Assembly (NCBI GenBank): GCA_024400835.1 | Contig: JAKSMC010000001.1 | Span: 16,335-80,334 of the forward strand | DNA length: 64,000 nucleotides | From: Bacteroidales bacterium | GTDB lineage: Bacteria > Bacteroidota > Bacteroidia > Bacteroidales > WCHB1-69 | Reading direction: 5' to 3' | Shown here: one piece after another, positions 2,322 to 7,252 of the stretch | Layout: every line of letters starts with the position of its first letter | Numbering within the stretch: position 1 is the stretch's first letter | The notes under the pieces: model-generated | Told to the model about the DNA's origin: nothing | Database searches by the model: none | What the model saw: the letters and a program-made list of their open reading frames with translations, nothing else | Program-made: the position numbers and the translations under genes

Positions 2322-2342
2322 ATCATACAATATGATAATAAA

Positions 2343-2375
2343 AGAGCGGCAAATTGGTTTGCCGTTCTTTTATTA
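2343..2375 (+). terminator. Rho-independent terminator after metH
   Basis: An 11-bp stem AGAGCGGCAAA / TTTGCCGTTCT (one G-U pair), a 4-nt loop TTGG, then TTTTATT. Confidence 0.7.
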
Positions 2376-2436
2376 TTTCTTCTTATGAGTTGGCTTTATT
2401 TCCATCCTATTTTCTAATGATGGATGAAGATCAACT

Positions 2437-4420
2437 TTACCTCACAATCAAGACTTTGCTGTCTAACACTTCCCCGTTGGAGGCAACTAATTTCACAGTG
2501 TATTGGCCGTAAATCAAGTCGTTGACGTTTATGTTGACCGATGTTGAGGCTTGGCTGAAAGGCTCTGACTTCACCACCATCCCCATCATATTAGTGAGTT
2601 GGACAGTGCCTCCTGTGATGGTCGGTGCCAAGCGATAGGCCACGGAGACTTGCGTTTCGGCGGGATTGGGTGACATGGTTGTGATGATGCCCTTTTTCAG
2701 CTTCACATTTACACTGTCGCAGGATTTGTAGCCATCAACAGTCGATTCCACCTCCAATTTGTAACGTTGGTTCTTGGTGGCAATCGTTGTCAGGGTTATG
2801 CCAACTGCCACCGTGTCGCCTTGCTCATCGTACCACATATAGTTGGCGGGTTCGCTCACATCTCTTGCATTTAGGGAAATTTCGTCTAAAGGAATTACAA
2901 TTAAATCTTCGGGTGCAACCGCTTGGAAGTTTCTATTGTCATTATATACAGCCTCATAATGTTCGCCGCCATACAGTTCTTTGTCGTCTCGCATTGCGAT
3001 GTCAAAAGTGAAAGTTCTATTTCTCACATTCTGCTTTGTATAAAATTTAACAATGGATTCTATCCAGCCAAACTCGCCAGCCGGTATTTCAACATTGTTC
3101 AAAGATGCTTTTTCGTCCAAAACACGGAAACAATTATTTCCGATATACCTCAAACCCGAGCTTTTGCTTCCTCCATTTTGCCAATCTTCCACCAAGGACG
3201 GATTCAACCTCACATAAAATTCCCCATAATCTAAGATTGACTTGTCTGATGTGTTTTTATGGAGAGCAATGTCAAAATCATACAGGTGTTTCTCCGGTTT
3301 TCTATTGCTCATCCATATTAAAGCAGCAGGTTCCTCTTTCATGACGGAAATGTTCTTCCACGCCACATTGTTGTTGTTCAAGACAAATTGGTCTATCGGG
3401 TAGTTCTGCTGGTTTTCCCCAATAATGTCGTTGCCATCGTGAATGCGGGCAAGCAGACAGAAATGCCATTTCTCCTCTGAATTTTGGAATATGCCGAAAT
3501 TGTAATCTTCCGCTTCCGGTACAAGCCATGGTATCTTAACAGTTGTTGGACAATCAACAGTGCTATTACTCAGCGTACAAGATGGAATAATAGTTTCTCC
3601 AACAAATCCACTCATAGGAACGCTATGGCCGTCTGCGGAATATACGATGGAACCCTCCCATCCGCTTGGCCAGGGCATATTCACACCCGCTTTTGACCAA
3701 TTTAAGAGTAGTTTTTGCTTGCCATTTGAAGGTACAACATCCGCATTCCTTATTTTGACGCATACATTATAGCGTTCTCCGCTCCTCGGATTATCAACGC
3801 GATGATGTTGCATATCTTCTATCCATATATCCGGACTGTCCCACATATAGGTAACGTGACTAGGGGTTTCACCATAGTCACTTATTGTGTCTCTCACGTA
3901 AAGATCAACTTTTGTAGCATTCTTTACGGCAGTGTATGCATTAACCAAACCGTATCCTAATTGCTCATTCCACCAGCCATTGTCTTTAATTATAGATTCA
4001 CATGTAAACAGATATCAAAGCGCATTGTGGGACGACACCTGACACTCCTTTAGAATTATTTCTTATTGCCCCAATGATGCCCGCACAGGCAGTGCCGTGT
4101 TTACTCTCAGGATTGTCAGCATGGTCACCATAGGATAAATATGCAACATTACCAGATAGGTCTGGATGGTTGAAATCAAAACCATCATCCAAAATGGCTA
4201 CCTTAACCCATTGGGATAAACCATCCCAAACGTAATTGGAATTTGTTCAATACAGATTGCGGTATTTCCGCATCTTCATTCAGTAGGACACACAATTTGT
4301 CTGAATGTTGTTCCACTGCGACTTTCTTTCCTTGGTAATAGTAATAAACGCTGTCGTTTTGCGCATTACTCAGAAATACTCCAAGGAACATAAATATTAA
4401 AATATAAAAAAATGTTTCAT
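2437..4420 (-). pseudogene. Disrupted subtilisin-like (S8) serine peptidase with a T9SS C-terminal sorting domain
   Basis: Three pieces lie in three different frames (4203..4391, 3998..4192, 2437..3948). The Asp motif (VAILDDG) and His motif (HGTACAGIIGA) are present. The end of the S8 fold (GYGLVNAYTAV) follows only about 20 codons after ALISVY, so the Asn/Ser part of the catalytic domain is missing. The original ATG at 4420 (MKHFF..) is cut off by a frameshift in an A7/T7 run. The C-terminus has SPNPA...YTVKLVA...VLIVR, typical of a T9SS CTD. Confidence 0.8.
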
Positions 4421-4854
4421 AACACTTTGTTAAATTTATAATTTTTTATTATCCAACCCTGCGTGTTGTCATCGTACCAAGTAATAAGATGCACTTTTAA
4501 TTCCATCGTACTCCTCGTTTTAGAAACTATGTCAAACCAATACATCATACGATCGTCAAATACTCTATTGGATTCTCTATCATACAGAAACATCTGCTTA
4601 CCACATATTTTAAGAGTTTTTCCACTGTAAAACAGAAAGTTTGCATCTGTGTCTTCTGAAGTCAACGGCATCGGATTGGTTTCTACCGTAACAACATCAT
4701 CGGATTCATCAATGGTCAAGACCACTTCCTGTCCCTCTTCCAATACGCATTTCCATTTGGTTATCTTTTCCTTGTAGCAGCCACTAAAGGCCAGTGCAAG
4801 CGAACATAACGCTATGATGAGAAATAAGATGTGTTTTATTCTTTTCATACTCAT
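4417..4854 (-). CDS. Small lipoprotein of unknown function (paralog A)
   Basis: Signal peptide plus lipobox (LAFSGC). It is clearly paralogous to the next gene. ATGA start/stop overlaps join it to both neighbours. Confidence 0.75.
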   Translation of the reverse strand: MSMKRIKHILFLIIALCSLALAFSGCYKEKITKWKCVLEEGQEVVLTIDESDDVVTVETNPMPLTSEDTDANFLFYSGKTLKICGKQMFLYDRESNRVFDDRMMYWFDIVSKTRSTMELKVHLITWYDDNTQGWIIKNYKFNKVL

Positions 4855-5273
4855 AATATTTTTGTGAATTTATAATTTTTAATTTGGGTGTACAAATCGT
4901 CATATTCTGGGAATCCATAGGCCTCTAATTCCATTGTCGTATCTGTTTGGAATACGATGTCAAAACCGAGATATGGATGAATAATAAATTCATCGAAATA
5001 GTTATAATAACATCCATATATCTTTGAATCAACCAGTATATAAATATCGCCATTGCGGAAAACGTATCTAACCGGCTTAGTTGGACGTAACGGGTCAGGG
5101 TTTGTCTCTACTGTAACCATATCACTAGAATGGTCAATAGTCAAAACAATTTCCAAACCCTCCTCCGGTACGCATCTCCATTTGGTTATCTTTTCCTTAT
5201 GGCAGCCGCTAACGATAAGTGTCAGGGTGCAAAGGGCCAAAAGGATTACCATCGTGTGTTTTATATGTTTCAT
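4851..5273 (-). CDS. Small lipoprotein of unknown function (paralog B)
   Basis: Signal peptide plus lipobox (LIVSGC). It shares KEKITKW.CV.EEG.E.VLTID.S.D.VTVETNP.PL and a C-terminal IKNYKF.K.L with paralog A. Confidence 0.75.
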   Translation of the reverse strand: MKHIKHTMVILLALCTLTLIVSGCHKEKITKWRCVPEEGLEIVLTIDHSSDMVTVETNPDPLRPTKPVRYVFRNGDIYILVDSKIYGCYYNYFDEFIIHPYLGFDIVFQTDTTMELEAYGFPEYDDLYTQIKNYKFTKIL

Positions 5274-5349
5274 ATTCGTTGTTTTTGTTTGTTAATAATA
5301 TTATTGAAAGAGTGTTGAATTACCCTAAGTAACCGATAATACGACACCT

Positions 5350-5383
5350 ATTTCAAATGACCTTGAAATACATTTTGAAATAC
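5350..5383. repeat. Inverted plus direct repeat of TTGAAAT in the upstream region of the lipoprotein operon
   Basis: ATTTCAA-atgacc-TTGAAAT-acatt-TTGAAATAC. The arms are 7 bp, and the TTGAAATAC copies are 12 nt apart. Confidence 0.5.
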
Positions 5384-5526
5384 GCCAATAAACAAATAAC
5401 GAAGTAAAAAGGGTAATCCAATCTTCTTGCGGAGGAGCGCAAGAGTATTCAACCCACCTGCCGAGAAATAACTGCTATTACGACAGGTGGCAATGTTTTA
5501 TGAATTGGTTTTGGCCCAACCACACT

Positions 5527-5549
5527 AAATCGTGTGAAACAAATCGTGT
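5527..5549. repeat. Direct repeat AAATCGTGT x2 (period 14)
   Basis: AAATCGTGT gaaac AAATCGTGT. It overlaps a CACAC/GTGTG hairpin. Confidence 0.5.
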
Positions 5550-5618
5550 TAGTATGTGTGTATAATTAGGCTTCATAAAGAAAAACTAACAAGGAATGGT
5601 TATTTGAAAAAAACGTTG

Positions 5619-5626
5619 CAAAGATA
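5619..5626 (-). promoter_or_regulatory. Candidate Bacteroidota -7 promoter box (TATCTTTG)
   Basis: Matches TAnnTTTG on the minus strand. It lies about 345 nt upstream of the lipoprotein B start, which would imply a long leader. Confidence 0.35.
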
Positions 5627-5706
5627 GGAAAAACAAGTATCAATCAGGCTGGAATAGGAAATATTTTTTTGAGCTTTTTAGACGGGTTTAATATTGCGGC
5701 GAGATG

Positions 5707-5744
5707 AAAAAAAGAACGGCATTCCAAAAAAAGGAACGCCGCTC
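5707..5744 (-). terminator. Rho-independent terminator after the histidine kinase gene
   Basis: On minus-strand RNA the hairpin is GGCGUUCC-U7-GGAAUGCC (one G-U pair), extendable at its base, followed by a U-run. The mismatch is a wobble only on the minus strand. Confidence 0.6.
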
Positions 5745-5749
5745 TTTTT

Positions 5750-7252
5750 TTATTTCTTCAGTTGGATTCTCATCACCGTGCCCTGGTCGATTACAGAGGA
5801 TTTGACGAAAAGTTTGCCTTTATGGTATTCATTGATGATACGGCGGGCCAGCGTGAGGCCCAAGCCCCAGCCACGGCTCTTCGATGTATAGCCGGGCGAG
5901 AAAATACGCTTCTGCAACTTGTTGGGAATGCCCTTGCCCGTATCGGTGATATCCACAAACACCTTTTTCTTATCTTCCGTAACATCAATGGTGATAGAAC
6001 CTTCCCCGTTCATTGCGTCCACGGAGTTCTTACATAGGTTTTCAATCACCCATTCGAACAGATAGCGGTTGAGCGGGAGCACCAAAGATTCCGTTTCAGG
6101 CTTGTTGAACGTAATGGAAACTTTTGATGAAATACGGGATTGAAGATATTGTGAGAAATCTTCTATCACCTGCACCAAGTCTGTAGGTTCCAAAACGGGC
6201 GCAGAACCGATTTTCGAGAAACGTTGGGCAATAGTCTCCAGCCTATGCACGTCTTTGCCGATTTCGGTAGGAATAGACTGGTCCACGGGCATCTCCTTCA
6301 GCAACTCCGTCCACGCCATAAGCGAGGAAATAGGTGTGCCAAGTTGATGCGCCGTTTCTTTGGACATACCCACCCAGACTCTGTTCTGCTCCGAACGTCG
6401 AGTAGTGCTGAACAGCAGGTAGGCAATGATGACGAATATGAGGATGAAGCCGAACTGAATATAAGGGAAAATACGTAGTTTTTTCAGCACGGAAGATTCT
6501 TCGTAGAAGACGTAGCATTTGCCCATATCCGTAAGGTTCAGTTCTATAGGCGGATTTTCACTCTTCATCTTTTCCAATCGCAAGCCTAACGCTTCCGCGC
6601 TGCACAAAGTAGCAGAATCTATTTTGCCGGCATTGAGCACGTTGTGCTTGGTACTGTCGGTGATGATAACCGGCACAGAGGCCGAGTTGATGACGGTCTC
6701 CTGGAAAAACGACTGGACGAGGTTGTCAATCACCACGTGAAGATCACCGTACATAGGAGATTCCTGATAGTAAACCGTGAGATAATGATGCGCGAGGTAT
6801 CGCAATTTCAGGCTGTCGAAAGATTTGATAGCATCGCCCATTTCGCGGATATTCTTCATATTCGCAATACTGTCTGGCACATTGGCGGCCGCATCAATAT
6901 TGCCACCGGCGCTCGTAACAATCAATGGGATAGTCTTATTGGAAGATATAATCTCCTGATAGAACGTCAAATCCTCATCCCAGTCGGCCTGCGTCATGCG
7001 TTGGATTGCGGAGGCCAGTATTTTAGCATGATTGCCCTCTTCCAACTTTATGGAATTGAAAAAGCGCTCAGTTTCATTGACGAACTGCGCCTTATAGGAA
7101 ATAGCGCCGGCCCAGATTTCGATACGCTTGCGCTCTTCCTGCGCAATATTGTTGATAAGTTTGTTGGAATGGTAAATAATGAACACAAAAACGATGGCGG
7201 CCGTTACAAACAGCAGCCATTTCCAACGTGCCTGATGTAGATTATTACTCAT
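5750..7252 (-). CDS. Sensor histidine kinase (membrane-anchored, large extracytoplasmic domain); no response regulator adjacent
   Basis: H-box ETAHQLGTPISSL and a C-terminal HATPase_c region (DTGKGIP, GWGLGL). There is an N-terminal TM segment and a second TM before the HisKA domain. Confidence 0.85.
   Translation of the reverse strand: MSNNLHQARWKWLLFVTAAIVFVFIIYHSNKLINNIAQEERKRIEIWAGAISYKAQFVNETERFFNSIKLEEGNHAKILASAIQRMTQADWDEDLTFYQEIISSNKTIPLIVTSAGGNIDAAANVPDSIANMKNIREMGDAIKSFDSLKLRYLAHHYLTVYYQESPMYGDLHVVIDNLVQSFFQETVINSASVPVIITDSTKHNVLNAGKIDSATLCSAEALGLRLEKMKSENPPIELNLTDMGKCYVFYEESSVLKKLRIFPYIQFGFILIFVIIAYLLFSTTRRSEQNRVWVGMSKETAHQLGTPISSLMAWTELLKEMPVDQSIPTEIGKDVHRLETIAQRFSKIGSAPVLEPTDLVQVIEDFSQYLQSRISSKVSITFNKPETESLVLPLNRYLFEWVIENLCKNSVDAMNGEGSITIDVTEDKKKVFVDITDTGKGIPNKLQKRIFSPGYTSKSRGWGLGLTLARRIINEYHKGKLFVKSSVIDQGTVMRIQLKK

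Follow-up and report, generated by a model that had tools for sequence, protein, structure and literature searches.

A rare lipoprotein family of uncultured Bacteroidales is coupled to a lineage of T9SS subtilases and may comprise protease inhibitors, orphaned where the protease has been lost

The staphostatins of Staphylococcus and the serralysin inhibitors are eight-stranded beta-barrels that are thought to protect the producer's own compartment. The orphan immunity-gene arrays of Bacteroidales, also called acquired interbacterial defence, are tandem sets of diverging small protective genes that persist without a cognate effector. Staphostatins and the serralysin inhibitors Inh/APRin are precedents for inhibitors encoded in an operon with a secreted protease, and the potempins are small beta-barrel lipoproteins whose genes overlap, or lie no more than 5 bp upstream of, the genes for peptidases of the type IX secretion system (T9SS) (PMC9890683). 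Potempins inhibit their co-encoded peptidases with nM inhibition constants (Ki); PotE, PotB1 and PotB2 are eight-stranded up-and-down barrels, and PotC, the potempin that inhibits the subtilisin-like mirolase, has an oligonucleotide/oligosaccharide-binding (OB) fold (PMC9890683). The potempin system has been described as unique to one oral pathogen. Here we examine two lipoprotein genes, A and B, and the remnant of a T9SS subtilase gene that follows them in a 64-kb stretch of DNA from a Bacteroidales bacterium (contig JAKSMC010000001.1; hereafter the window), together with related loci, which we designate by L numbers. We conclude that lipoproteins A and B belong to a small, rare family of outer-membrane lipoproteins that occurs in uncultured Bacteroidales and had not been annotated before. 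We also find that this family is a dedicated, conserved and often translationally coupled genetic partner of one lineage of T9SS subtilases of peptidase family S8.

The partnership can be observed where the protease is intact. A preliminary description of the window had suggested a survey of related genomes for intact versions of the operon, and such versions exist in related bacteria of the gut or rumen: an S8 peptidase of 809-1043 aa with a T9SS sorting domain is directly flanked by members of the lipoprotein family in six independent loci. A 139-aa member in L006, L007 and L008 overlaps by 4 nt a gene for a 1035-aa protein with Peptidase_S8 and Por_Secre_tail domains, and a second paralogue follows the protease; L011 and L012 have the same layout with a 1029-aa protease. 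In L023, a 148-aa lipoprotein gene overlaps that of a 1042-aa protease, which is followed by a 161-aa paralogue, and L013 consists of one paralogue, a 1030-aa protease and two more paralogues. L020 holds a single lipoprotein gene with a 1043-aa protease in a different chromosomal context. The remaining locus is L018, where a relative of ~25% identity (P0036) is followed by a 112-aa gene and by an intact S8 peptidase of 809 aa with a sorting domain. In the intact proteases the S8 match spans the whole profile (E 3.9e-50), the sorting domain of the partner proteases is an ordinary Por_Secre_tail, and the intact proteins carry an N-terminal region of their own of ~230 residues.

Across these loci, family genes directly precede the protease gene, in many cases with an overlap, and in many cases directly follow it too. 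Stop/start overlaps of 4 nt were found in the window, L001, L006, L013, L017 and L023, which is the placement of potempin genes (directly upstream of a T9SS peptidase gene, overlapping it or within 5 bp); the gap between lipoprotein and protease is wider, at 6-14 nt, in L015, L020 and L011. The lipoprotein-protease modules occupy at least three unrelated chromosomal contexts.

One of these contexts is a HEPN/nucleotidyltransferase neighbourhood. The pair, which resembles a toxin-antitoxin system, adjoins the module upstream of the lipoprotein gene in L005, L006, L011 and L012, and 0.6-1.4 kb without a called gene lies between the pair and the module.

The family is rare by every search that we made. 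Among 5.8 billion proteins, a single-sequence search found 6 family clusters and a profile search found 24, and an exhaustive HMMER search with the family returned 37 of 1.84 billion representatives at E ≤ 1e-3. Relatives were present in 3 of 185,579 reference species, all titled as uncultured Bacteroidales metagenome-assembled genomes (MAGs), and a metagenome scan with the core family alignment yielded three loci. Lipoprotein B is identical to P0008, a protein of an NCBI 'Bacteroidales bacterium' MAG. Neither lipoprotein A nor lipoprotein B has a match in Pfam (E ≤ 1), Lipocalin_4 (PF13648) included, or in NCBIfam. The lipobox Cys is invariant in the family alignments, the box was scored as being of the potempin type ([LVI][ASTVI][GAS]C), and the residues from the lipidated Cys onward follow the pattern C-[HRQY]-K-[ED]-[KQ].

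In the window, the genes for lipoprotein B, lipoprotein A and the subtilase follow one another on the minus strand (Table 1). The preliminary description had read them as chained by ATGA overlaps, the two lipoproteins as paralogues, the subtilase as a disrupted S8 gene with a T9SS sorting domain, and the whole patch as richer in A+T than its flanks. Each of these statements held when we returned to the sequence. The gene coordinates were confirmed, as were the stop/start overlaps at 4854..4851 (B/A) and 4420..4417 (A/subtilase). Lipoproteins A and B share 48% identity (BLASTP, E 2e-38), and each begins with a signal peptide that closes with a lipobox. The G+C content of positions 2437-5749 is 0.398 compared with a window median of 0.484, making this the lowest 3.3-kb stretch in the 64 kb. 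Every homologue opens with MKRIK, the N-terminus that the ATG at 4848 would give lipoprotein A; translation of A may therefore begin there, 2 nt past the stop of B, and not at the overlapping ATG. The coupling of B to A is tight whichever start applies. Elsewhere in the 64-kb window, no further copy of the family and no intact protease was found.

The subtilase gene behind the lipoproteins is broken into pieces that are spread over three different reading frames. One extra T in the T-run after the ATG at 4420 would restore the subtilase signal peptide, MKHFFYILIFMFLGVFLSNAQ. Fragment 1 matches the start of a 197-aa protease stub in L001, fragment 2 covers positions 9-86 of 288 in the Pfam Peptidase_S8 profile, and fragment 3 is an open frame of 513 codons with a Por_Secre_tail match (E 3.7e-8). 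Of an intact relative, residues 236-309 and 525-1035 alone are matched by the remnant; residues ~63-235 and 310-524 are missing. The remnant is without the oxyanion Asn and the catalytic Ser, and a full S8 Asp/His/Ser triad joined to a sorting domain is not present. Because the Ser region has been deleted, while intact relatives match the full S8 profile, the window subtilase is, to judge from its sequence, a pseudogene of the family of S8 peptidases with a T9SS type A sorting domain.

Identity of the remnant to the L020 protease is 81% in the C-terminal half, 47% in the Asp/His fragment and 35% at the N-terminus. The C-terminal half is close to the L020/L015 lineage, and the N-terminal and Asp/His pieces (3998-4391) resemble the L001 stub instead. 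This mosaic suggests a deletion or recombination that fused two different protease genes. Over the C-terminal 516 codons, the ratio of nonsynonymous to synonymous substitution rates (dN/dS) of the remnant against L020 is 0.14, with no stop codon, and pairs of intact genes give 0.14-0.17. The gene has suffered a frameshift, a pair of internal deletions and a mosaic junction. Since the ratio equals that of the intact pairs and no stop codon has arisen, we conclude that this inactivation of the window protease is recent.

The preliminary description had called the lipoproteins of the window orphaned, and the wreck of the protease just described is repeated in other loci. Single lesions split the protease gene in L005 and L015. 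Stubs of the protease remain in L001 (197 aa, N-terminal, behind five tandem paralogues), in L002 (a signal-peptide stub between paralogues) and in L017 and L022 (108 aa), while in L010 and L016 the protease is absent and four paralogues stand in tandem. Between L017 and L023, whose flanks are 97.6-98.2% identical, a clean 2,814-bp deletion removes the protease only. Because these two loci differ by a protease deletion in a near-identical background, protease-plus and protease-minus alleles evidently coexist in one population, with the lipoproteins kept in both. We conclude that loss of the protease is a recurrent fate of this operon, and that the lipoproteins are left intact, in arrays of up to five.

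We then compared substitution rates along the lipoproteins. Between A and B of the window, synonymous sites are saturated throughout (proportion of synonymous differences, pS, 0.6-1.0). In the N-terminal mature segment of ~40 residues, dN/dS is 0.10 at a pS of 0.68; because synonymous sites are saturated while dN/dS is this low, the segment is conserved by selection. Gene conversion was considered as the cause of the near-identity of A and B in this segment and is ruled out by the same two values. The central segment gives a dN/dS of about 0.74, a value made unreliable by saturation and poor alignment. Orthologous pairs show a dN/dS of 0.2-0.5 overall, with 0.06-0.3 in the N-terminal strands and 0.2-0.9 in the central segment. 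Lipoprotein B and L001_4, which both come from genomes that are now protease-less, give 0.40 overall and 0.06 in the N-terminal strands. The lipoproteins are thus under purifying selection with a relaxed middle, also after the protease has been lost.

Elsewhere in the family, the 5' ends of paralogues have been homogenised. L016_1 and L016_2 are 100% identical over their first 47 codons and 54% identical beyond, and L017_1/2 and L001_2/3 present much the same picture. Gene conversion is real in these three pairs, and because the 5' ends are homogenised in this way, the family is evidently mosaic. At the DNA level, the first paralogue of L016 (1027-2116) and of L010 (152-1241) is chimeric: the leader and first 47 codons are identical (100%) to those of the next paralogue, and the remaining body is of the 'downstream-type' subfamily. 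The chimera shows a recent segmental duplication or gene conversion.

A structural model was built with AlphaFold2 from the family alignment. The predicted local distance difference test (pLDDT) score was 86.3 for the full protein and 91.3 for the mature part, the latter with a predicted template modelling (pTM) score of 0.84. The modelled mature lipoprotein has eight main strands in up-and-down order and a short helix in the beta3-beta4 loop. Each family member is predicted to be a ~115-residue eight-stranded up-and-down beta-barrel on an N-terminal lipid anchor. The best Foldseek matches of the model were the barrels of avidin, lipocalin, siderocalin, fHbp and TbpB, with template modelling (TM) scores of 0.45-0.51, E ≥ 0.014 and 7-16% identity.

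We mapped the column entropy of the family alignment onto this model, in bits. The conserved ends and variable middle noted in the preliminary description are borne out by the mean entropies, which are low in the Cys-linker (0.42 bits), beta1 (0.60 bits) and the beta1-2 turn (0.12 bits) and higher in the beta3-4 loop (1.70 bits), the beta5-6 loop (2.09 bits, with indels) and the beta7-8 tip (2.58 bits). Because the odd-numbered connections of an up-and-down barrel lie opposite its N-terminus, these three variable segments would sit on the face of the barrel that points away from the lipid anchor.

The reading that we prefer, and to which we give a little less than an even chance, is that the lipoproteins are protease-binding inhibitors or immunity proteins, analogous but not homologous to potempins, that have been orphaned in the window. 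The barrel would bind the protease through its long variable membrane-distal loops and block it, as potempins do with the KLIKK peptidases. Such blocking would protect the envelope of the producer during folding of the protease in the periplasm or while the enzyme is on the cell surface, and different paralogues would cover different protease variants. Lipoproteins A and B would be orphan inhibitor or immunity genes because the protease of the window is destroyed while both genes are intact and constrained, and they may still guard against related proteases from neighbouring cells.

Several observations weigh against inhibition. Foldseek searches of the PDB with full-length and mature models gave no match at E ≤ 1e-3, nor was a potempin among the best 50, and a profile of 35 family sequences run against all PDB chain sequences (E ≤ 10) found no potempin and no other inhibitor, returning just four weak signal-peptide-type matches. 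The potempin directed at a subtilisin, PotC, has an OB fold, whereas the barrel predicted here is eight-stranded. The preliminary description had expected the variable middle to be a diversifying binding surface, and this expectation was not supported: pairwise dN/dS in the central segment, at 0.2-0.9, is never clearly above 1. The intact proteases could already be kept latent by their own N-terminal region, and the persistence and multiplication of the lipoproteins without a protease fits a protease-independent function equally well. The 2.7-kb contig of one distant relative, L021, contains no protease. Finally, the signal for surface export of lipoproteins is K-(D/E)2 or Q-A-(D/E)2 (PMC5080379), a rule that comes from other species, and the family does not match it. 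The lipoproteins may face the periplasm, surface exposure not being predicted; such an orientation would remain compatible with protection during the folding of T9SS cargo in that compartment.

Linkage and translational coupling would look the same if the lipoprotein were an escort or maturation factor that binds the protease or its propeptide at the outer membrane and aids folding, processing or surface attachment after secretion by the T9SS. The most conserved part of the lipoprotein, the N-terminal beta1-beta2 hairpin, could be a constant docking site for such a client, and the lack of a surface-export motif fits a helper that faces the periplasm. A helper, however, should vanish with its client, yet after protease loss the lipoproteins are intact, constrained and present in up to five copies. 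T9SS cargo with a type A sorting domain is, moreover, not known to require a dedicated partner, and we consider an escort unlikely. Retention without a protease would be explained if the lipoprotein were a calycin-like binder that captures either a small molecule or the peptides released by the protease so that they can be taken up, with the protease merely a metabolic neighbour. Although the best structural neighbours of the model are indeed ligand-binding barrels, the matches are weak (E no lower than 0.014, TM no higher than 0.51), and no transporter (SusC/D or TonB-dependent receptor) is present in any of the loci. The linkage is also specific to one S8 lineage across deep divergence, and diversification of tandem paralogues would be unusual for a nutrient binder. 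A ligand binder is, in our judgement, distinctly unlikely.

The same operons could also arise by hitch-hiking, with lipoproteins and protease of unrelated function sharing a variable accessory island. This is improbable in view of the 4-nt overlaps, which are conserved across loci, and of a linkage that persists at ~25% identity (L018) and in at least three unrelated chromosomal contexts, even though the G+C content falls below that of the flanks in every locus, mosaic recombination is evident, and L010 and L016 hold arrays without any protease. A further explanation makes the lipoprotein a resistant target. BSAP toxins of Bacteroidales can target a single outer-membrane lipoprotein (PMC12853789), and with this precedent the protease could be an antibacterial weapon that acts on a surface lipoprotein of competitors, the adjacent genes being the resistant alleles of the producer, an arrangement known from some BSAP toxins. 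Variable distal loops, multiple paralogues and an accessory AT-rich module found in several contexts are compatible with such a weapon. However, hardly any family member lies in a locus that does not have, or did not once have, the protease, and the search of 1.84 billion representatives turned up no widespread 'sensitive' orthologue. This protease lineage has no known antibacterial activity, and we regard a resistant target as very improbable.

If the lipoproteins are inhibitors, they would form a second, non-homologous family of lipoprotein barrels locked to a T9SS subtilase, which would suggest that the pairing of secreted proteases with membrane-anchored blockers is common. They would constitute a new protease-inhibitor family for MEROPS-type classification and would explain a set of small lipoproteins that are otherwise anonymous. 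Loci that lost the protease time and again, yet retained the lipoproteins, offer a natural experiment that sets self-protection only against additional defence from the enzymes of neighbours. A bolder proposal, which we think decidedly unlikely, is that T9SS subtilases of gut or rumen Bacteroidales are used against neighbours and that the lipoprotein family is the corresponding immunity, kept and amplified after protease loss, with 5' gene conversion making new combinations. If that were true, the family would mirror the orphan immunity arrays with a protease in the effector's place, and potempin-like inhibition would be general, and independently evolved, in Bacteroidota and not peculiar to Tannerella.

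The region upstream of lipoprotein B has features of its own. The 347-nt leader (5274-5620, minus), which runs from the TATCTTTG box to the start of B, folds more stably than shuffled controls (z = -3.0), with 0 of 100 shuffles as stable; the match of TATCTTTG to a -7 box could be due to chance. The ~75-nt two-hairpin element of this leader reads GGTTGGGC.AAAACCAATTCAT...GCCACCTG...CAGGTGG, with a T-run after the second hairpin in most loci. It is also found in L015, L011/12, L005-8 and L009 and in two copies each in L010 and L016, having been duplicated along with the paralogues. Its alignment has 47 invariant columns and almost no covariation, and the element could be an attenuator, a terminator or a protein-binding site that controls the operon. 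When leader and operon were scanned against Rfam, no credible family emerged. A gene for a 500-aa histidine kinase (5750-7252, minus; HATPase_c, weak HisKA) immediately precedes the operon in the same orientation. Between the kinase and the lipoproteins there is no visible gene for a response regulator, and this neighbour is missing from the other loci.

Table 1. Predicted features of the lipoprotein-subtilase operon and its surroundings in the window
Feature	Position	Strand	Description
Promoter-like box TATCTTTG	5619..5626	minus	matches the Bacteroidetes -7 box; 346 nt upstream of the lipoprotein B start
Two-hairpin non-coding element	5454..5529	minus	conserved; within the lipoprotein B leader; most other loci have it ahead of their family genes
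Lipoprotein B	5273..4851	minus	140 aa; signal peptide, lipobox VSGC, predicted beta-barrel
Lipoprotein A	4854..4417	minus	145 aa; lipobox FSGC; alternative ATG at 4848 giving MKRIK
Original subtilase start	4397..4420	minus	ATG overlapping the lipoprotein A stop, 7 codons, then TAA; frameshift in T-run
Subtilase fragment 1	4203..4391	minus	62 aa; remainder of the signal peptide, plus ~50 residues from the start of the N-terminal propeptide region
Subtilase fragment 2	3998..4207	minus	S8 Asp and His boxes only (VAILDDGFD ... HGTACAGI)
Subtilase fragment 3	2437..3978	minus	last residues of the S8 domain, ~400 unannotated aa, T9SS C-terminal sorting domain (about 2446-2670)
Bidirectional terminator-like hairpin	2334..2377	.	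separates the ends of metH and the subtilase remnant

Lipoproteins paired with secreted enzymes may be a wider theme in these bacteria. In L019 (245-927 and 1986-2715), a small META-domain lipoprotein and another with a weak match to Lipocalin_4 directly precede short N-terminal stubs of a different secreted protein. The stubs share a 'P(P)RFGY' motif, and one lipoprotein-stub pair has a 4-nt overlap. The Lipocalin_4 neighbour is unrelated to lipoproteins A and B.

We finally compared the family with the systems that it most resembles. Calycin-type barrels (avidins, lipocalins and the C-lobe of fHbp/TbpB) share the eight-stranded up-and-down topology and give the best Foldseek matches, which are not significant; fHbp and TbpB are, in addition, surface lipoproteins that bind proteins. 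Staphostatins and Inh differ from the present family in that they are not lipoproteins, staphostatins being cytoplasmic and the serralysin inhibitors periplasmic and soluble, and in that their targets are cysteine or metallo-proteases. They were not among the top structural matches, and no sequence relation to them was found. The orphan immunity arrays of Bacteroidales offer, by analogy, tandem diverging small genes that persist without a partner gene. Their products neutralise effectors of the type VI secretion system (T6SS) and their genes sit on mobile elements, whereas here a T9SS protease is the partner and the lipoprotein arrays have no visible mobile-element genes beside them.

The comparison with the potempin/KLIKK system of Tannerella forsythia, which the preliminary description had put forward, stands in part. 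Arrangement and protein class agree: both systems encode a small lipobox lipoprotein of about 100-130 mature residues, with an all-beta barrel (eight-stranded and up-and-down in PotE, PotB1 and PotB2, and by predicted model here), immediately upstream of a T9SS peptidase gene that it overlaps or closely adjoins. Both also have paralogues with similar signal peptides and 'orphan' copies. On the sequence and structural side, there was no detectable homology by profile against the PDB and no potempin among the top Foldseek matches. Because homology is lacking, we conclude that the family should not be filed as potempin, the fold being matched at class level only. The two systems differ further in that the sorting domain is Por_Secre_tail here and of the KLIKK type there, in that the hosts are uncultured Bacteroidales here and an oral pathogen there, and in that the present family also places copies after the protease gene and forms tandem arrays with as many as five members. 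By analogy, the family is best described as a non-homologous version of the 'lipoprotein inhibitor plus T9SS protease' arrangement to which three features have been added: the lipoprotein genes lie on either side of the protease, their tandem arrays show 5' gene conversion, and they are orphaned recurrently.

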